Source: an uncultured Spartobacteria bacterium
Lineage (GTDB): Bacteria > Verrucomicrobiota > Verrucomicrobiia > Chthoniobacterales > UBA6821
Assembly (NCBI GenBank): GCA_903868795.1
Contig: CAIPWR010000108.1
Location: 5,589 to 69,588 of the forward strand
Length of the DNA: 64,000 bases
Direction of reading: 5' to 3'
Below the pieces are notes generated by a model that had not been told where the DNA came from, made no database searches, and saw only the letters and a list, made by a program, of their open reading frames with translations. Positions 15,868 to 29,316 of the stretch are shown here, one piece after another; within the stretch, counting starts at the first letter, position 1, and each line of letters starts with the position of its first letter. Made by a program: the position numbers and the translations under genes.

Positions 15868-17448
15868 TCAATTTATCGCGCCTGCAAATTCAGGCACTGA
15901 ATCAATCGCGGCAGTCGAGGAATCTGGCGATCGGAACCAGGATTTCCACCCCTCCCGAATCTCGAGGAGGAGCCAACCAAACAAGGAACCAATAATGATC
16001 TTAAGAAGTTGGGAGAGCTTGAAGTTGAAGCCCCCAAAGAGGTCTCTACATCCGTTGTTGTGGCAACCGAAACGGCCATCCTTCCTGCGCTGCATACCCA
16101 TAGCCGCCATCCGACGGTTATAGCAGCGCATCAGCCAGAATACGGGCCATGCGTTTTGGTGACTATATGGAGGCTGGGAAAGTTCTTTTCCACCACTTTG
16201 GAAGATCACTTTAGCAACAAAGAGATAGTAGAGACCCACATCCAGCCTGAATGCGATCTTCATAAGATCGAAGTCACCCATGTAATCGTACTTATTCTGG
16301 TAAAGAGCTTCGAGCATCCGTTGGTAGCTCGTAGTGAACTCCCGATTATGACGGGTCAGTTCTTCGGATAGGTTTTTATTCTTTCTCCAAGACATGATCA
16401 CCTTGACTGCCGAGCTTGTTGTAAAAGCAATCCAGTCCATTCCTGGACTGTAGAACGGATCCAGAAATGCTGAGGCATCTCCAGTAAGCACAAAGCCATC
16501 TCCCGCCTGTACTGTTGAACAGTAAGGAAGATTTCTTCGGAAATGAACGTCGCCTTCGATATATTCGGCACCCTGGAGCATTTCGCGGGCGCCGGCATGA
16601 CGTGAGAGGAAGTCCCTGATTTTTTCGCCTACTGGAGCACGATCATCAGGCCATTCTGCCCGGCGTTGATCGATGACAACTCCGATGCTTGTATCCCCTC
16701 CTTTGAGGGAAATCCACCATGCCCACCAACCATCTCCGATCAGATGATTAGTGGCTGTTCCTCGAATTCCCACAAAGGATCGTGAAAAATCAGATTCGGA
16801 ATCTGAAAGAGATGAGTCATCCCAATCCTTAGCTCCTCTCCAGCGGGACCAAGTGGCGAGCGTTGGATGTGTGGGAGTTGGACGATACCAACCATTTGCT
16901 CTGGCAAGCATGCACTTCAATCCCGAAGCATCAATGACCCATCGGGAGCGAAGAATACTCTCTCCCTTATCAGATTTGATCTTGAGCGTCTGATCTCCTC
17001 CTGCAGCAAGATCAACAGAGGTGACCTGAGCAGGGCGCATAACATCGACCCCCTCACTGCGTGCACGATTGAGGACCTCCTCATCAAGAACTGAACGATC
17101 GACTAAAAATGAGGGTACCGTGGAGAGGTATTTTCCGCCAATTTCAGAACACTCTCTAATCCCGGATGCTTGGTCATTTGAAAACCAAAACCTCAGACCA
17201 TTCTTGCAGATTTGAGATTGGGTCAGAAAGCGGGTGAGACCGAGTTTTCGGCAGAGAAAATATCCACTGACCTCTACGGTGGCTTCCCCGACTCGCCTCT
17301 TAAAAGAAGTATTCTTCTCGATAAGAATGATTCGAAGCGATGGATCTTCCCTCTTCAAAAGGAGGGCCGCCGAAGCTCCACTCAAAGCGCCACCTATGAC
17401 AGCGACATCGTAGCACTTCTCATCATTCTTATGGCTGAGATTGTGCAT
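15868..17448 (-). CDS. FAD-dependent halogenase-like oxidoreductase (copy 3, divergent)
   Basis: VIGGALSGAS, GEATVE, and GWWAWWIS (WxWxIS, a variant of WxWxIP). Confidence 0.65.
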   Translation of the reverse strand: MHNLSHKNDEKCYDVAVIGGALSGASAALLLKREDPSLRIILIEKNTSFKRRVGEATVEVSGYFLCRKLGLTRFLTQSQICKNGLRFWFSNDQASGIRECSEIGGKYLSTVPSFLVDRSVLDEEVLNRARSEGVDVMRPAQVTSVDLAAGGDQTLKIKSDKGESILRSRWVIDASGLKCMLARANGWYRPTPTHPTLATWSRWRGAKDWDDSSLSDSESDFSRSFVGIRGTATNHLIGDGWWAWWISLKGGDTSIGVVIDQRRAEWPDDRAPVGEKIRDFLSRHAGAREMLQGAEYIEGDVHFRRNLPYCSTVQAGDGFVLTGDASAFLDPFYSPGMDWIAFTTSSAVKVIMSWRKNKNLSEELTRHNREFTTSYQRMLEALYQNKYDYMGDFDLMKIAFRLDVGLYYLFVAKVIFQSGGKELSQPPYSHQNAWPVFWLMRCYNRRMAAMGMQRRKDGRFGCHNNGCRDLFGGFNFKLSQLLKIIIGSLFGWLLLEIREGWKSWFRSPDSSTAAIDSVPEFAGAIN

Positions 17449-21573: not shown

Positions 21574-22002
21574 TTATCTCGCTTGATGGATGATGAAGGT
21601 GACGGCTCCCCAGATAGTGAGCTCCTGATTCTCACCCACCTCAATGGGTGAGAAGGAATCATTGGCTGCTTCTAGGAAGATCCTGCCATTCAGCTTGCGG
21701 AATCGCTTTACGGTGAATTCTCCGTCTATCATGGCCACCACGATCTGACGGTCAGCTGGGCTGACTGACTTGTCCACGATCAGGGTATCGCCAGTGTGGA
21801 TCCCCGCATCGCGCATGGACTCCCCCTTCACCCTAACGAGGAAGGTCGCGGCGGGGTTACGGATCAGTTCCTCATTGAGGTCGATCCCGCGCTCCAGATG
21901 GTCATCAGCGGGCGACGGAAAACCGGCTTCCACCGATGCTGAGACTAGGGGAAGTCGGATGCTGGTGCGTTTTTCTAAGGGAATAGGTGCGGAGAGAGAC
22001 AT
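21574..22002 (-). CDS. umuD: UmuD / LexA-like S24 peptidase
   Basis: VEAGFPSPA (Ala-Gly cleavage site), the GESM serine motif and a TVKRF lysine region. Confidence 0.85.
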   Translation of the reverse strand: MSLSAPIPLEKRTSIRLPLVSASVEAGFPSPADDHLERGIDLNEELIRNPAATFLVRVKGESMRDAGIHTGDTLIVDKSVSPADRQIVVAMIDGEFTVKRFRKLNGRIFLEAANDSFSPIEVGENQELTIWGAVTFIIHQAR

Positions 22003-22009
22003 GCGATTT

Positions 22010-22903
22010 TCAGGGCATTCTCTCACTGGAGATCTTGTTGGCAAGTTGCCTCCCCAGAACAGTGTTCATGTACTTCGCATCAGGGATGATTCCCACCCTT
22101 CCTAGATCCAATCGGTCGGCATCCCAGCAGGTGCCGATCGTTGGGTTGGCATTGTGAGTGGTCTCCGTGTGCCAGGTGCAGGCAAACTCCAGAAGTTCAA
22201 ATTGCTCGTCGGTGATCTGAAAATAAGTGCCTCGAAGCTCATGGGCATAAGCCGCACCTCTTCTGCCATGATCTGGGTCTGAGAATTCGTTCTCCCGCCT
22301 GCTGTCATGGAAGAGGGCAAAGAGTCGCACTACGACGGCATCAGCGCCGGAGCTTGCGGCTAGCATTAGTCCGTTCTGCTCGACCCTTTTCCAGTGATCC
22401 GGGCCATGGTCGGAATGCTCGTCCAATGGAAACTGACTGGTGACAATCCGCCAGAGTTTCTCAAAGTCGATTCCTTGGTCAGAAGATTCAATCTTTTCCA
22501 GATTTTTGGATTCTTCATCGGGAAGGATTCTCTTTTCCCAAGCCTCGATCCTGATCCTCTCACCGGAGAGGCATCCGATCACCGAGAGGATTCCGTCTGT
22601 CACGCTGAAGATGGCGTTCTGACCGTGCTTTCTTCCCATCGTGAGAGCCTCCTCATCGGTCAATCCGGCCACTCCCCAGCCTTCCTCGCGATGCGTGAGA
22701 TCCGGAGAACATCCCGTGATTCGGAAGCAGCGAGAGCCAGCAAGATTCAGTTCTTTTCTGAGTTCCTCATCAGCTTTGGCATTGAGTTCGGCTCCGAGGA
22801 TGATGCCGGGGTTATACGCCGTGATGATGTGGAAATTCCGAGGCCACCCACCGGATGGAGGAGAGGCTTGAAAGACTGTCTCGAGATATTCTGGATGAAT
22901 CAT
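22010..22903 (-). CDS. DUF3293-like N-terminal domain fused to an HD-type phosphohydrolase-like domain
   Basis: The N-terminus has IITAYNPG...EGWGVAG...GQNAIF. The C-terminus has HWKRV...LFALFHDSRR...DPDHG. The ATG at 22903 overlaps the upstream stop (ATGA). Confidence 0.55.
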   Translation of the reverse strand: MIHPEYLETVFQASPPSGGWPRNFHIITAYNPGIILGAELNAKADEELRKELNLAGSRCFRITGCSPDLTHREEGWGVAGLTDEEALTMGRKHGQNAIFSVTDGILSVIGCLSGERIRIEAWEKRILPDEESKNLEKIESSDQGIDFEKLWRIVTSQFPLDEHSDHGPDHWKRVEQNGLMLAASSGADAVVVRLFALFHDSRRENEFSDPDHGRRGAAYAHELRGTYFQITDEQFELLEFACTWHTETTHNANPTIGTCWDADRLDLGRVGIIPDAKYMNTVLGRQLANKISSERMP

Positions 22904-23628
22904 TGCGTGTCCTTCGTGACGGCTAAATCTTCTTTTGTGATCGTGGCTGGAACGCTCGGGACGTGAATAACCTCCTTGATTCCAGTGCTCCTGAGAATAG
23001 TCCAGACGGGATCGTCTTCTGAGATGCGGGTCTTGAGGCAAATGACGTGAGGTCCGAGGGCCATGAATCCGAAGCCAAGTGTTCCAAGATCACTTCTGCG
23101 CCTCACATCCAATCCAATCACTGGAGAGAGGGTGATCCCTGATTCTTTTGAGCTCTTCTGCAATGCCCTGATGAAGCTCGTCATCATGGTGGTAAATCCA
23201 TGACCGAATTGGCCATCGTAAGAGCCTTGGTAATCGTATTCGAGAGCCTCGCGTCCTGTCTTTGATGGGAAGCAGAAGTAAGCGATTCCGGACTCATAAA
23301 CAGGACCTGGCTTGGTTCGGATATAGGGACACGGCATGAATACACCAGAGAACCCATATCCGAGGTATTCCACAAAGCTGTCGGCAATCAGAATGCTGTT
23401 GGCCTGATAGGAGACCAAACTCTGCTTCTCATCACAGTCGGTGGGTTGCTGTTTGACGCCGAAAACCTCATCCTCCCCACACTGCATCACTAGACCAAAG
23501 TCAGCTCCATTGTGTGTTTCTGGAAATCGAAACGCTCCGTAGGGAAAATAGGATCTTATGGCTCGAAGTATCTCTACGGGGGGCTCTAGCAATGTTACTT
23601 CGCCTTGGGGTGTCTGAACGGTTTTCAT
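22900..23628 (-). CDS. hypothetical protein
   Basis: 242-aa ORF, translationally coupled to the downstream gene. No motif recognised. Confidence 0.5.
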   Translation of the reverse strand: MKTVQTPQGEVTLLEPPVEILRAIRSYFPYGAFRFPETHNGADFGLVMQCGEDEVFGVKQQPTDCDEKQSLVSYQANSILIADSFVEYLGYGFSGVFMPCPYIRTKPGPVYESGIAYFCFPSKTGREALEYDYQGSYDGQFGHGFTTMMTSFIRALQKSSKESGITLSPVIGLDVRRRSDLGTLGFGFMALGPHVICLKTRISEDDPVWTILRSTGIKEVIHVPSVPATITKEDLAVTKDTQ

Positions 23629-23688: not shown

Positions 23689-25383
23689 CTACGTGTTTAC
23701 AGTTAGCTGGTAGCTTTCAAGTTCGTTCGGATGAACGCATCTGATCATCGAGACATAGCCGTTTCTATGTTTTCCGCTACTGAAGAAAGTGCATCCACCC
23801 GGCTCCTCCTGATCATCTTGAAATGAGAAAGCAAAATACCTTAAGACGCCTTCATGGACGCCCGTTCCAGCCTTGAAGATTGACATTTGAGACTTTGTCT
23901 TTTTCCCGCTGATATGCCTCCCCAAAAAAGACAACAGATCATGTCTGCCTCGTATAATAACCTTGGAAGGTGCGTTTATATACGAGACATCTTCAACGAG
24001 CAGCCTGGAGAGACCCGATAAATCGCCCTCATTAAGACCTCTCACGTAGCTTTCCACCGCCTTAGCATCATCAAAAGGGAGTTCACGTATCTCCTCCAAT
24101 TTTTCATTCATTGAGGCGGGATTAAGAAACTCCGGTCTCCGAGCGAAAGAGAGGGGGGAAATCTCATCACTGAACTCCTCAAGTCCTTCCACAGAAATAT
24201 TGAATCCGTCATCTACTGGATCCAATAGGACGCTTAGATGAAGGCAACCCATTCCCTGATCTAAGGCCTCTAGTCTATTGATCTGGCGCTGCTCCTCGGA
24301 AAGCGACTCCCGGTTACTGCATGATTCACTCTTTGTATCAACATATAGTAGAAGGCGCTGATCACCCTTTCTCACCGAAAAAGCAGGATGTTTTTTTCTG
24401 AATAGTACTCCCTCCAGGCAATCCACTTCCCATCCATCAGTCAAAAACGCAGCTCCGACAATTTGGAGAGCAAGTGGAAGCTGTGGGTTCGAGTACAAGT
24501 AGGAAATCCCGGCCAGAAGTCCATTGGGCATTCCCGATGCATCGTTCGGGAGTTCAATGTCCATCAATGAAGTTTGGTCCTCGGAGGGACCGATTGGCCC
24601 TCCCTGCAACCAGGCCGTCCCCGCCACGGAATCCCCCTCGGCTGGCTTGTATGAACCGAGGACCTTGTTACTGGCATATATCCTGACACGTATCGGTTCA
24701 TCGCCATCGGGTCTAAGATTCAACTGAATGATGCATCCTTCCCCATAAAGACCTTCATATGGGAGTACCTCCTCCACGACGGACTGAAATTCAAAATCTG
24801 CGTCTCCCTGATCTACATAATACCTTCCACCCTCCATCTGGAGGCGAATTGATCGGAAGTCAGAATGATCGCTGTCCGAATCGCCTTTCTTTTCTTGTAT
24901 CTTGGGCCCCGCAGAAAACATCTTCTGATCCAACTCAGGGCATCCCTCCACCTTACTAAGCGTGTAAGCGAAGGCTGCGAGGCCCCAGATGTAACGATGC
25001 CCGTTGGTTAGTATCGATTGAAGGCAATTGTAGACCGCACAAAAGACCTCAATCTCAAAACCATCTTTAGCGAGCAGGCGGACGATGCCTTCGTGCGATG
25101 ATCCGTCCTCTTCCATGATTGGCTTCAGCGTATGTACCTGAAACTCGTTCTTAGTTTCCCTTTCGGGTTCCTCAAGGATTGGATAGGAAGATTCTGGCTC
25201 CTTGTCGGGATGAGTTCGGATGGTGACTGCTGAGACCGGCTCTTCATTCCCCACCAGATACTGTCCCTCTGCCATGTATTCTCCGTCCCAAAGAAGATTT
25301 CCCGTTTTGAGCACATGATCGATGTGCCTTTCGATTGTAGCTTCATCGCCCAAAACAGTAAGCCAATGCCTTGTGTGATTCAT
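23689..25383 (-). CDS. hypothetical protein (564 aa)
   Basis: Long uninterrupted ORF with no motif recognised. The C-terminal ~110 aa may be NTF2/SnoaL-like (weak). Confidence 0.55.
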   Translation of the reverse strand: MNHTRHWLTVLGDEATIERHIDHVLKTGNLLWDGEYMAEGQYLVGNEEPVSAVTIRTHPDKEPESSYPILEEPERETKNEFQVHTLKPIMEEDGSSHEGIVRLLAKDGFEIEVFCAVYNCLQSILTNGHRYIWGLAAFAYTLSKVEGCPELDQKMFSAGPKIQEKKGDSDSDHSDFRSIRLQMEGGRYYVDQGDADFEFQSVVEEVLPYEGLYGEGCIIQLNLRPDGDEPIRVRIYASNKVLGSYKPAEGDSVAGTAWLQGGPIGPSEDQTSLMDIELPNDASGMPNGLLAGISYLYSNPQLPLALQIVGAAFLTDGWEVDCLEGVLFRKKHPAFSVRKGDQRLLLYVDTKSESCSNRESLSEEQRQINRLEALDQGMGCLHLSVLLDPVDDGFNISVEGLEEFSDEISPLSFARRPEFLNPASMNEKLEEIRELPFDDAKAVESYVRGLNEGDLSGLSRLLVEDVSYINAPSKVIIRGRHDLLSFLGRHISGKKTKSQMSIFKAGTGVHEGVLRYFAFSFQDDQEEPGGCTFFSSGKHRNGYVSMIRCVHPNELESYQLTVNT

Positions 25384-25502
25384 GGGGCCATTCTTTTACC
25401 ACGGAATAATTCATAGAGCTACAAACGTTACCTTTATGACACATGAAAGGTTTGTCTCGAGGGAAGTCCTCTGCTATAAAATTCACAGCATCAGGAACGT
25501 CT

Positions 25503-25620
25503 TTGGGTAACACCAAGGGCTGCCAACCTAGGAAGGAGAAATATCCTAAGGTGGCTGGGTGAGGAAACTCACCCTTGGATAGGGAAACCTATCCGATGTG
25601 CAGCGGGGAGAAATCCCGCT
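25503..25620 (+). ncRNA. candidate structured RNA (unknown class): tandem GAAA-tetraloop hairpins
   Basis: gggtgag-GAAA-ctcaccc (25557-25574) and ggatagg-GAAA-cctatcc (25577-25594), each a 7-bp stem. Also agcggg..cccgct (25602-25620), cctagga..tcctaagg (25527-25551) and ttgg-gtaaca-ccaa (25503-25516). Lies in a 354-nt ORF-free gap. The strand is inferred from the GNRA loops. Confidence 0.4.
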
Positions 25621-25737
25621 GAACAACTATCTCTCCGGCTTTCTAAAGCGCTCTTCCTGATCATCCGATCAACGGGGGGCTTTTTTTATTGCCCGGGTTC
25701 CTGGTGTTTCACCTCAAACGAGAAAGGAAACACCAAC

Positions 25738-25950
25738 ATGAGTCACAAACCCACCCTGGCAGTAAGGATCACCAAGAATCCGTTCCATCATCTTTGGAAC
25801 AACAACGGCACCTGGTGGTGCCACTACACCGAGCACCTACAGGATTACACCAAGTGGCGTGTCCGTCGCAGCCTCCACACGAGCGATTCATCGCTCGCCC
25901 GCGTTCTCCGGGATTCCCTCCTCTGCGAGGCGGCCCATTACGAAGCCTAG
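25738..25950 (+). CDS. small basic hypothetical protein (70 aa)
   Basis: ATG ORF downstream of the RNA candidate. The segment HLWNNNGTWWCHYT...RVRRSLHTSD loosely recalls N-terminal arm regions of tyrosine integrases. No catalytic domain follows. Confidence 0.35.
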   Translation: MSHKPTLAVRITKNPFHHLWNNNGTWWCHYTEHLQDYTKWRVRRSLHTSDSSLARVLRDSLLCEAAHYEA

Positions 25951-26152
25951 GACGCCCAGCGACCTACAACCCAAGCCATACTGCGACCATGCACGGACTC
26001 CAGGAAATCATCTACGCCAATAGGGAAGTCGCCCGAAAGCATAAGGCACGTGCTCTCAGGAAACGAGCTGAACGCGCACAGCAAGTCATTGCCGAGTGCA
26101 TCGTAAGCAGCAGGGGCATTTCGTTCACAACCTCCAAATGTCGATCCAAACC

Positions 26153-26854
26153 ATGAGCACTGAATTCACAAGTCCCGTCGATCTCCCCATCACCCGTTCC
26201 CAGTTCCTTCTCGGAGGGCTAGGTACGATTGCCTTGGCATTGCTTCCTTTTCGGAAGTCAGTGAACACAGTCGCCAGCACAACGTCACCATCGACCCTGC
26301 TTGTTAGGAGGGAGAGTTTAGAGATCCCGGATTACTCATTGGATCAAGCTCGTGAGAAGCTCGATCTCTGGAACATCAAACACCGAGAATCTGCACGCTC
26401 TCTCAAGTGTGAACCCCCTTTATCAGTCATCCTGGGGTTGCTTTTATTTAAGGATCGTCATGACGGCATCGAACGAGATGGTTGGAGGAACAATCCCCTT
26501 AATAAAGAGCTTAGGGAGTTTTTTACCCAAAATAGAATCAGGAGGATCCTTGTGGTAATTGCGAGCGGGGAAGCTGGCCAGCCAATACATGACATCCTGC
26601 AAAGGGAACTACACAAGACCGGAGGATTCGGACCAATCATGAGCCAAATGCCTCTTCATCTGCACTATAGAGCATATATCAAATCTCGGGTTCTCGATTG
26701 CTACGATCCCGCAGATCTCGATTCCACAACTGAGGGATGCAGGCTGAAAGGATTGAGGCGGAGTTTAGCCTCTTGCGGAGAGGTCAATCTCGATGAGTTG
26801 CTTGCGTTGCCATTCCAAGATGCTTTTCGGGAAAGGATGGATGATTTCGTCTGA
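26153..26854 (+). CDS. hypothetical protein with N-terminal hydrophobic anchor/signal
   Basis: The ATG at 26153 overlaps the stop of a 55-codon upstream ORF (25989..26156, ATGA). N-terminus is TRSQFLLGGLGTIALALLPF. Confidence 0.45.
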   Translation: MSTEFTSPVDLPITRSQFLLGGLGTIALALLPFRKSVNTVASTTSPSTLLVRRESLEIPDYSLDQAREKLDLWNIKHRESARSLKCEPPLSVILGLLLFKDRHDGIERDGWRNNPLNKELREFFTQNRIRRILVVIASGEAGQPIHDILQRELHKTGGFGPIMSQMPLHLHYRAYIKSRVLDCYDPADLDSTTEGCRLKGLRRSLASCGEVNLDELLALPFQDAFRERMDDFV

Positions 26855-28125: not shown

Positions 28126-29316
28126 GTGAGAGGAATGCCCAAGCGTTCCTCTCCCAAATCCTCCTCTTCCCCGAAGCAGAAAAAATCTTCCGTCGTTGAA
28201 AAGACGGTGCCTGTGATGCAGAAAGCTGCAGAAGCTACCAAGGCGAAGGCCAAGCTATCGGCCGAGAAACCATCCTCACAGGGAATCATTCAGGGAAACA
28301 CATCCCGTGATCATATCTATCGGATCTTCGTGATCTTTTCTGAGGTTCAGAATGAGCGTTATCCCACACCAAAAAAGCTGGCAGCTCTTTGCGACGTCAA
28401 AGACAGGACAATCCTTCGTGACATCGATCAGATCAATGGACTTTTGAGCAATTTTGAGACCACTCATGAAAAAGTCGGAAGGGTCGACACCAACGCAATA
28501 GAGTTCGATCACCAGAAAGGTGGGTACCGCCTCAGGCATAAACTCAACCACTTCCCGATCATCCGTGTTGAGGACCCTGATCTGTTAACTCTTCATTTTC
28601 TTCGCCAGTGCCTGGAGCCCTACAAGGACACGGGTATCGGAAAGAGCATGATCGAGTCCTTTAACCGCACCTTCGGTATCCTAACAGGAACGACAGACTG
28701 GAAGCAGTGGGAGCGGATCGTCCACTTCCGGTTTGAGGGTAAGCCCGAGGTTGCCAAGGAGGATGTGAAGCTCTTTGACCTCCTGCACAAGGCTATCAGG
28801 GAAAACCTTCAGGTATCGCTCGACTACAAGCCTGCCAAGGATCCCAAGAGCACACGCATCATCGAGCCTCACTTCCTCTTCATGCGTAACGGTTCCTGGT
28901 ATCTCTATGCCTCAAAGGCCGGCAAGCCCGAGAAGCGTACCCTGAAGTTCGCCCGCATCAGTAATGCCAAACTCACCGGCGAGAAGTTCACCCACGTCCG
29001 GATGGATCCCAAGGACTGCTTTGAATACAGCTTCGGAGTCGTCCCCTCCCAATCCAAGGCTCTCAAGAATCCTGTCGTATTGGAGTTCACCAAGGAGTCC
29101 GCCCAGCGAGTTTCCGAGACACTCTGGCATCCCGAACAAAAAGTGAAGGATCTCCCTGGAGGCGGAGTGCGCCTGGAGCTTCCCTTCGACGAACCGACCT
29201 ACCTGGAACTGAAGCCATGGATCCTCAGCTGGGGTGCCTCAGCCAGAATCATCGGACCGAGAGAACTCAAGGATAAAGTGGCAGAGGATGTGCGGGCGAT
29301 GGCTGCTGGGATTTGA
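28126..29316 (+). CDS. WYL-domain transcriptional regulator
   Basis: Lys/Ser-rich N-terminal tail, an HTH-like YPTPKKLAALCDVKDRTILRDIDQI segment, and the NGSWYLYA WYL signature, followed by a C-terminal extension. Confidence 0.8.
   Translation: MRGMPKRSSPKSSSSPKQKKSSVVEKTVPVMQKAAEATKAKAKLSAEKPSSQGIIQGNTSRDHIYRIFVIFSEVQNERYPTPKKLAALCDVKDRTILRDIDQINGLLSNFETTHEKVGRVDTNAIEFDHQKGGYRLRHKLNHFPIIRVEDPDLLTLHFLRQCLEPYKDTGIGKSMIESFNRTFGILTGTTDWKQWERIVHFRFEGKPEVAKEDVKLFDLLHKAIRENLQVSLDYKPAKDPKSTRIIEPHFLFMRNGSWYLYASKAGKPEKRTLKFARISNAKLTGEKFTHVRMDPKDCFEYSFGVVPSQSKALKNPVVLEFTKESAQRVSETLWHPEQKVKDLPGGGVRLELPFDEPTYLELKPWILSWGASARIIGPRELKDKVAEDVRAMAAGI

Follow-up and report, generated by a model that had tools for sequence, protein, structure and literature searches.

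An unannotated SAM-I/IV-class riboswitch with a doubled P4 helix probably leads an uncharacterised gene family in an uncultured Spartobacteria bacterium

In a 64,000-nucleotide (nt) stretch of DNA from an uncultured Spartobacteria bacterium (contig CAIPWR010000108.1; hereafter the window), we analyzed a gap without open reading frames (ORFs) and the small gene of an uncharacterised family that follows it, here called gene X. With a probability of roughly 0.8, we read the RNA element in this gap, E1, as an unannotated riboswitch of a known class, SAM-I/IV (SAM clan, RF01725; SAM, S-adenosylmethionine), that forms the 5' leader of gene X. E1 is homologous to this class, its helices are supported by covariation, its alternative pairing is conserved, and its link to gene X recurs in independent loci. 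The gap and three of its hairpins are the following.

25384-25737, 354 nt: ORF-free gap between flanking ORFs
25557-25574, plus strand: hairpin 1 (P4a), GGGUGAG-GAAA-CUCACCC (in DNA, GGGTGAG-GAAA-CTCACCC)
25577-25594, plus strand: hairpin 2 (P4b), GGAUAGG-GAAA-CCUAUCC (in DNA, GGATAGG-GAAA-CCTATCC)
25602-25620, plus strand: third stem, AGCGGG-GAGAAAT-CCCGCT, with 8 base pairs (bp) at 25601-25621 in the predicted fold

The gap is bounded by a minus-strand ORF of 564 amino acids (aa) that ends at 25383 and a plus-strand 70-aa ORF that starts at 25738. Hairpins 1 and 2, separated by 2 nt, are the only perfect 7-bp GAAA hairpins on either strand of the window, and dinucleotide-shuffled windows contained a mean of 0.3 perfect 7-bp GNRA hairpins each. 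The window holds one further perfect 7-bp GNRA hairpin, on the minus strand at about 16433-16450, and none besides. The gap folded far more stably than its shuffles, with z-scores of -7.2 (plus strand) and -5.3 (minus strand). Jointly, the described hairpins are beyond chance. A first-pass annotation, made from the sequence, had listed these three stems, two more at 25503-25516 and 25527-25551, and a seven-T run at 25681-25687; all lie where it placed them, and the T run proved to be part of an intrinsic terminator. It had also proposed that CCAAGGG (25513-25519) competes for pairing with CCCTTGG (25572-25578). The two are indeed complementary, but as a competing pairing they lie about 19 kcal/mol above the minimum-energy fold and are lost in L079, an ortholog with two hairpins, and the complementarity is probably incidental. 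Folding the gap as a whole also gave a long-range stem, GAGGGA/UCUCUC, which we rejected because its 5' arm lies upstream of the likely transcription start and its 3' arm is the pseudoknot strand described below. ARAGORN found no tRNA or tmRNA in the window.

At gathering thresholds, Rfam gave no match across the whole window. A permissive local scan of 25300-25800 yielded a full-length match of E1 to RF01725 (31.9 bits, E 0.0027, model positions 1-99), in which all capitalised consensus positions of the model were matched and both GAAA hairpins were treated as inserted after P3, ahead of the 3' strand of P1. The comparison with Rfam that the first-pass annotation had proposed was negative at the gathering cut-off and informative below it. 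The parts of the aptamer are as follows.

25488-25636, plus strand: SAM-I/IV-class aptamer E1 (RF01725, our own covariance model R1, and covariation)
25488-25492 (GCAUC) with 25595-25599 (GAUGU), plus strand: P1
25493-25496, plus strand: J1/2, AGGA
25497-25521, plus strand: P2, 9 bp with one bulge and no kink-turn (K-turn), including the stem at 25503-25516
25522-25555, plus strand: P3, including the stem at 25527-25551
25601-25621, plus strand: 3' hairpin P5
25535-25539 (GGAGA, P3 loop) with 25632-25636 (UCUCC, 3' tail), plus strand: pseudoknot

E1 keeps the conserved core CAUCA.GA / GCCAACC / AAGGUGGCU / GAUG. The core test of the class found P1 with ..AUC/GAU.., J1/2 ending in GA, and P3 with GCCAACC...AAGGUGGC. 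The same core motifs were present in at least 30 homologs, as well as in loci to which protein X, and no DNA pattern, had led. P2 of E1 has no K-turn, internal loop or P2-loop pseudoknot (PK-1), which is a feature of the class, and P2 loops vary freely in the family (GUAACA in E1, GAAA in E2, a second copy in the window, and others elsewhere). The 'SAM-I/SAM-IV variant' Stockholm alignment of Weinberg et al. 2010 (PMC2864571) contains a hairpin between P3 and the P1 3' strand in many rows, though not all, and its SS_cons lines annotate this stem at the P4 position, the 3' hairpin and the pseudoknot between P3 loop and tail. The text of that paper describes a P2 without the internal loop of SAM-I and SAM-IV, and a pseudoknot at the P2 tip that may not exist. 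A later study likewise gives SAM-I/IV a P4 helix, an unsplit P2 and no PK-1 (PMC6890682). E1 thus has every structural feature of the SAM-I/IV class and falls short at the operational Rfam score cut-off alone.

The comparison with the individual classes of the clan points the same way. With SAM-I/IV (RF01725; PMC2864571), E1 shares the core sequence, a P2 without K-turn or internal loop, a hairpin at the P4 position, the 3' hairpin after P1, the pseudoknot between P3 loop and 3' tail, and its place in a 5' leader with an expression platform. It differs in having two tandem P4 hairpins where the class has one or none, in its sub-cut-off Rfam score, and in its link to the uncharacterised X and to variable non-metabolic genes; furthermore, earlier descriptions present the class as mainly marine, while the members reported here occur in freshwater Verrucomicrobiota and Planctomycetota. 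SAM-I (RF00162) resembles E1 in the nucleotides of the ligand pocket and in having a P4 helix in the junction. However, E1 has neither the P2 K-turn of SAM-I nor its pseudoknot of the P2 loop with J3/4, and SAM-I lacks the extra 3' hairpin and the P3 loop-tail pseudoknot of E1. The P2 loops of the family are neither conserved nor complementary to the junction. SAM-IV (RF00634) shares with E1 the pocket, the 3' hairpin (P5) and the PK-2 pseudoknot between P3 loop and 3' tail (PMC6890682), but it has no P4 and a P2 split into P2a and P2b with PK-1, whereas in E1 P4 is doubled and P2 is unsplit. Outside the clan, IMES-4 (RF02037) has adjacent hairpins with similar GGAAAC-type loops; we rejected it at 22 bits against a cut-off of 48 (E 0.3), as it covers only the hairpins and P5, while SAM-I/IV explains the whole region. 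A weak match to mir-427 was ruled out on score and coverage.

We searched for homologs with the pattern TCAGGAA..GCCAACC..AAGGTGGCT, which gave eight true members among 36 matches in species-representative genomes. These eight came from Chthoniobacterales, Spartobacteria, other Verrucomicrobiota, a Kuenenia metagenome-assembled genome (MAG) and Planctomycetota, and scored 32-43 bits on RF01725; one of them, L009, passed the cut-off with 43.2. A tighter pattern applied to metagenomes yielded about 30 members, and viral contigs gave no match to the core pattern. Each of these genome and metagenome homologs has one hairpin, of very varied sequence, between AAGGUGGCU and GAUG; in total, about 40 relatives have a single hairpin at this place. 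A covariance model, R1, was built from 14 homologs. Searching with R1 produced 34 matches in the collected loci and exactly two in the window, whereas the 22 chance pattern matches included in the search gave none; E1 scored 89.4 bits (E 8e-21).

Covariation among the homologous regions, which the first-pass annotation had proposed as a check, was strong in an alignment of 33 distinct sequences on this model. Standard pairs made up 96.1% of the pair cells, compared with 76% in shuffles, and 25 of the 36 pairs had changed on both sides. None of 500 shuffles reached the observed value on any of five measures, and sliding the partners by one to three columns lowered pairing to 33-46%. The P4 helix covaried at all seven of its pairs and P5 at all six. 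The pseudoknot, GGAG(A):(U)CUCC, was found family-wide, with the compensatory variants GGAGU:ACUCC, CCGGAGAG:CUCUCCGG and GCGGAGAG:CUCUCCGC. Three loci, L063:41-211, L064:568-733 and L067, carry an additional conserved domain of about 40-45 nt within P5 (GCGGUGCUCUCC..GGGGAA.UAGACCCCACUGGAAUGAGGCCA).

The two GAAA hairpins occupy the position of a single helix in the homologs. Hairpin 2 directly adjoins GAUG in the 3' strand of P1, which is the place of P4 in every homolog, and hairpin 1 is an extra copy between P3 and P4. The P4 of the E2 type, GGAUGAG/CUCAUCC, is one compensatory pair away from hairpin 1 and two from hairpin 2. Tandem duplication of P4 would be the simplest origin of the pair. 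Two-hairpin members were found in the window and in L079 only, the latter fetched through a protein X of 84% identity. L079 reads GAAAGAG-GCAA-CUCUUUC UG GGAUGGG-GAAA-CCCAUCC; relative to E1, hairpin 1 has three compensatory pair changes and hairpin 2 has one, and both loops are still GNRA. These four compensatory changes therefore indicate that both helices are under selection. Hairpin 1 is an extra element in the P3-P4 junction that is tolerated and whose structure has been maintained. L079 and L080 (from JGI and ENA, with the same extent and gene layout) are probably one contig. In L079:1246-1405, P3 reads GCCUACC, whereas GCCAACC is invariant elsewhere; the substituted position maps to the SAM pocket.

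Around the aptamer, we identified the elements of a cis-regulatory leader, namely a promoter-like site, a terminator, a hairpin close to the start codon and two sequences complementary to the aptamer.

25452-25480, plus strand: promoter-like site, -35 TTGTCT (25452-25457), 17-nt spacer, -10 TATAAA (25475-25480)
25645-25687, plus strand: intrinsic terminator, composite stem of -15.1 kcal/mol followed by seven U
25697-25707, plus strand: second switching sequence, GUUCCUGGUGU, overlapping the 5' arm of the next hairpin
25702-25710 with 25727-25735, plus strand: AUG-proximal hairpin, ending 2 nt before the AUG at 25738

Homologs have -35 elements of the TTGA/TTGC type and -10 elements of the TAnAnT type at an equal distance from CAUCAGGAA. 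A consensus promoter scan missed the site at 25452-25480, as it demands a T at the last -10 position. Transcription would start at about 25485-25488, at the foot of P1. The first-pass annotation had extended the RNA over 25450-25690; the first part, 25450-25482, is promoter-like DNA outside the RNA. Its placement of this RNA on the plus strand, as a cis-acting leader or riboswitch for the ORF at 25738, agrees with our analysis.

The terminator contains UUCCUGAU (25654-25661), the exact complement of AUCAGGAA at the 5' side of the aptamer. Enforcing the AUCAGGAA:UUCCUGAU pairing abolished the terminator at a cost of 3.9 kcal/mol, and a UUCCUGAU-type motif is found in or beside the terminators of homologs. 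The second sequence, GUUCCUGGUGU, forms a duplex of -18.7 kcal/mol with the 5' side of the aptamer, compared with -7.0 for the P1 3' strand. The two alternative-pairing duplexes have energies of -18.7 and -10.5 kcal/mol and the states are nearly isoenergetic, those with and without the GUUCCUGGUGU pairing differing by 1.4 kcal/mol. A GUUCCUGGUGU-type motif was kept in nearly all members (z typically -4 to -7 against shuffles), and the signal was absent from the pattern matches that are not riboswitches. In L071, the motif changes in step with the aptamer, AAGAGU facing ACUCCU. Planctomycete members carry the AUG-proximal element alone, with no terminator.

These elements suggest a mechanism. 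The transcript would start at about 25485-25488 and fold into the P1-P2-P3-P4 junction followed by the 3' hairpin, with the pseudoknot between P3 loop and 3' tail locking the fold. When SAM is bound, P1 would form and hold the 5' strand (GCAUC, then AGGAA), the terminator at 25645-25687 would form, the AUG-proximal hairpin would form in any read-through RNA, and X would be OFF. When SAM is scarce, the 5' strand would instead pair with UUCCUGAU in the terminator and later with GUUCCUGGUGU near the start codon, opening both blocking hairpins and turning X ON. E1 would accordingly be a SAM-bound OFF switch acting on both transcription termination and translation initiation.

The gene directly downstream is the following.

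25738-25950, plus strand: gene X, encoding a 70-aa protein of an uncharacterised family

The family comprises 124 clusters at 90% identity, with proteins of 62-121 aa that are all hypothetical. It has an invariant motif, HH..NN.GT..H.T (H17, H18, N21, N22, G24, T25, H29 and T31). A confident AlphaFold2 model of X (predicted local distance difference test score, pLDDT, 83.5) shows strands followed by a C-terminal helix and had no significant neighbour in the PDB. Pfam gave a weak match to DUF6538 (E 5e-4, below the cut-off). An integrase remnant, as this match might imply, was ruled out, X being a conserved stand-alone family that always follows the riboswitch. In all 12 loci that were fetched through the protein alone (nine distinct sequences), the riboswitch lies directly upstream of X.

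Several points weigh against E1 being a SAM-I/IV riboswitch that works as described. Its 31.9 bits fall below the RF01725 gathering cut-off of 41.1, a shortfall due to P4, which counts as an insertion in the 99-position model. For covariation, the sequences were aligned to our own model, which favours that structure, and most homologs came from a pattern that fixes the core motifs, so that core invariance among them is partly by construction; the covariation evidence therefore rests on the variable stems, while the pattern bias does not touch the 12 loci to which protein X led. E2-type relatives carry the first switching motif in the loop of the terminator rather than in its stem, which makes the antiterminator geometry tentative. 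In addition, the controlled genes X, Z and Y (the latter two described below) are not recognisable genes of SAM, methionine or sulfur metabolism.

This last point bears on the ligand, for which SAM is the probable candidate. An RNA of the same fold might instead bind S-adenosylhomocysteine or another SAM-related metabolite, making the X-linked subgroup a specificity variant within the SAM clan. The genes around it are atypical for a SAM sensor, X, MoxR/VWA, Metallophos, SelO and kinase genes standing where methionine or cysteine genes would be expected; E1 also has AGGA at J1/2 where the Rfam consensus has AAGA, and L079 has the GCCUACC noted above. However, all positions equivalent to the SAM pocket are presumably kept in E1: the SAM-I residues within 5 Å of SAM, when placed on E1 through the SAM-I sequence, correspond to AUC, GA, CAAC, UG and the A of GAUG. 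Moreover, L071 has AAGAG upstream of the same gene family, and AGGA is a common natural variant in the 2010 class alignment (PMC2864571). SAM-I, SAM-I/IV and SAM-IV share one ligand pocket, the SAM-I residues near the ligand being listed in the same source (PMC6890682). Links to a SAM or sulfur theme also exist, as the window encodes a ThiS/SAMP1-like protein and related operons a divergent MetK. On this evidence we consider a ligand other than SAM unlikely.

We regard it as very unlikely that the leader of about 200 nt ending at the terminator (25485-25687) acts mainly in trans as a small RNA, with control of X in cis being secondary. A strong terminator after the aptamer would be expected to give a stable short transcript at high SAM. 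Nevertheless, the riboswitch is tied to the start codon of X in 12 of 12 independent loci, the second switching sequence overlaps the AUG-proximal hairpin, and the planctomycete members have the AUG-proximal element with no terminator at all, all of which favour a SAM-I/IV riboswitch acting on X in cis. No trans target came up either, no search aimed at one having been made.

A search with the P3 core revealed the second copy, E2, which is convergent with E1 and followed by genes of its own.

28013-27879, minus strand: E2, second SAM-I/IV riboswitch copy
27796-27509, minus strand: gene Y, the first gene after E2, with an in-frame TAG at 27625-27623
27482-27210, minus strand: ThiS/MoaD/SAMP1-like gene after Y, intact

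E2 scored 27.0 bits on RF01725 and 134.7 bits on R1. It has a single P4, GGAUGAG-UUAA-CUCAUCC, and its P5 and tail are nearly identical to those of E1. Its P1 reads CCUC instead of CAUC, and this A-to-C change breaks the A-U pair at alignment columns 8/157, which none of the other sequences among the 33 does. The U-tract of its terminator is interrupted, compared with terminators of the L037/L038 type. The TAG in Y stands where more than ten homologs have Trp (GKPIWVYAIDG) and marks a pseudogene, a sequencing error or read-through. The ThiS-like protein matched Pfam ThiS (E 6e-16) and the NCBIfam models SAMP1 (58.9 bits) and MoaD_arch (51.6 bits). With its P1 change, broken U-tract and the stop in Y, E2 looks like a decaying copy. 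We rejected the idea that E1 and E2 are terminal inverted repeats of a mobile element: their alignment columns are 71% identical on average, and each is a promoter-proximal leader facing its own genes.

E1 might likewise be a non-functional relic, given that in E2, in the same window, P1 is mutated, the U-tract broken and the first gene interrupted by a nonsense codon, and that E1 itself carries an unusual extra hairpin. We judge this more unlikely still, as P1, the core, the pseudoknot, the terminator and both switching motifs are all preserved in E1, the X ORF is intact, and both hairpins of E1 are maintained by compensatory changes in L079. The proposal of the first-pass annotation that the RNA belongs to a new class unrelated to known families, which the lack of an Rfam match at gathering thresholds across the window had seemed to allow, deserves scarcely any credence and is refuted by the full-length sub-threshold RF01725 match, the homologs that reach the threshold, the covariation, and an architecture identical to the published 2010 alignment, in which a hairpin is annotated exactly where both GAAA hairpins sit.

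The genes that follow X vary from locus to locus: a MoxR cassette; a Metallophos gene; SelO; TPR and Kinase-PolyVal genes; or Y, a ThiS/SAMP1-like gene and Z. The recurrent MoxR cassette encodes a MoxR AAA+ protein, a 155-173-aa protein, an HExxH/VWA (DUF2201-type) protein and a divergent MetK (174 bits against a metK cut-off of 309), and was found at four loci.

L041:1-3816: MoxR cassette locus
L037:1206-6883: MoxR cassette locus, with 576-aa and 259-aa proteins after the cassette
L070:4445-8261: MoxR cassette locus
L074:1798-3288: MoxR cassette locus

By tblastn, the MoxR, VWA and MetK-like proteins are absent from the window, which of this cargo holds X, Z, Y and ThiS only.

26096-26854, plus strand: gene Z, 252-aa ORF as listed, with no Pfam match

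Z is probably in the same transcription unit as X. In L031 and L060, a 229-aa protein encoded directly after the riboswitch is 42% identical to Z. A 251-aa gene closes the X-54aa-ThiS operon of L079. A 242-aa ORF in the window (22900-23628, minus strand) is almost identical over its first 55-60 residues to a 242-aa gene of L031 (about 730-1460), a Chthoniobacterales MAG, where that gene follows the riboswitch and Z. The window therefore seems to stem from a close relative whose gene order is rearranged.

Other neighbours of X and E2 were noted. A regulator with WYL and WCX domains (28126-29316, plus strand) lies immediately beyond E2 in divergent orientation. Within a few kb of X, the window also has a UmuD-like Peptidase_S24 gene (21574-22044, and neighbours); near X, L069 has Peptidase_S24 and Y-family polymerase (IMS) genes and L073 two IMS genes. 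A DUF3293 gene is found near X both in the window (22010-23041) and in L079. In L071:1-8219, X and the riboswitch stand beside SNF2/PLD and AIPR genes, with the TPR and Kinase-PolyVal proteins next, which looks like a defence-island setting. PADLOC assigned no known defence family to X, Y, Z, the MoxR, VWA or MetK-like proteins or their neighbours.

The X cassettes sit in variable islands next to AIPR, SNF2/PLD, WYL and UmuDC genes. One speculative and rather unlikely reading is that the riboswitch and X form a sensor module for the SAM level at the head of variable conflict- or stress-type cassettes, in which depletion of SAM would serve as an alarm for infection or stress and not as a homeostatic signal. 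Phage SAM lyase is an example of a drain on the SAM pool (PMC7877911), and if this reading were true, the cassettes would be turned on when SAM collapses, for instance through such a lyase. X might then be a DNA-binding relay regulator, given its small size, its modelled strands followed by a helix, and its weak likeness to an integrase N-terminal domain. Our literature searches returned nothing relevant on a link between a riboswitch and MoxR/VWA/MetK genes or on defence controlled by a SAM riboswitch.

As an RNA, E1 is ordinary and of low to moderate interest. Because RF01725 under-calls members that bear P4 (27-43 bits against 41.1), Verrucomicrobiota and Planctomycetota harbour riboswitches of this type that annotation passes over. 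That compensatory changes have preserved the doubled P4 in two lineages shows that the P3-P4 junction of the class tolerates an extra helix, a finding of use in engineering and in studies of how the periphery of SAM-clan riboswitches is built. Of greater interest is the tight link between riboswitch and X, which points to undescribed SAM-dependent biology, and the variable cargo after X, comprising MoxR/VWA, MetK-like, ubiquitin-like, phosphoesterase, SelO and kinase genes, makes this link testable.

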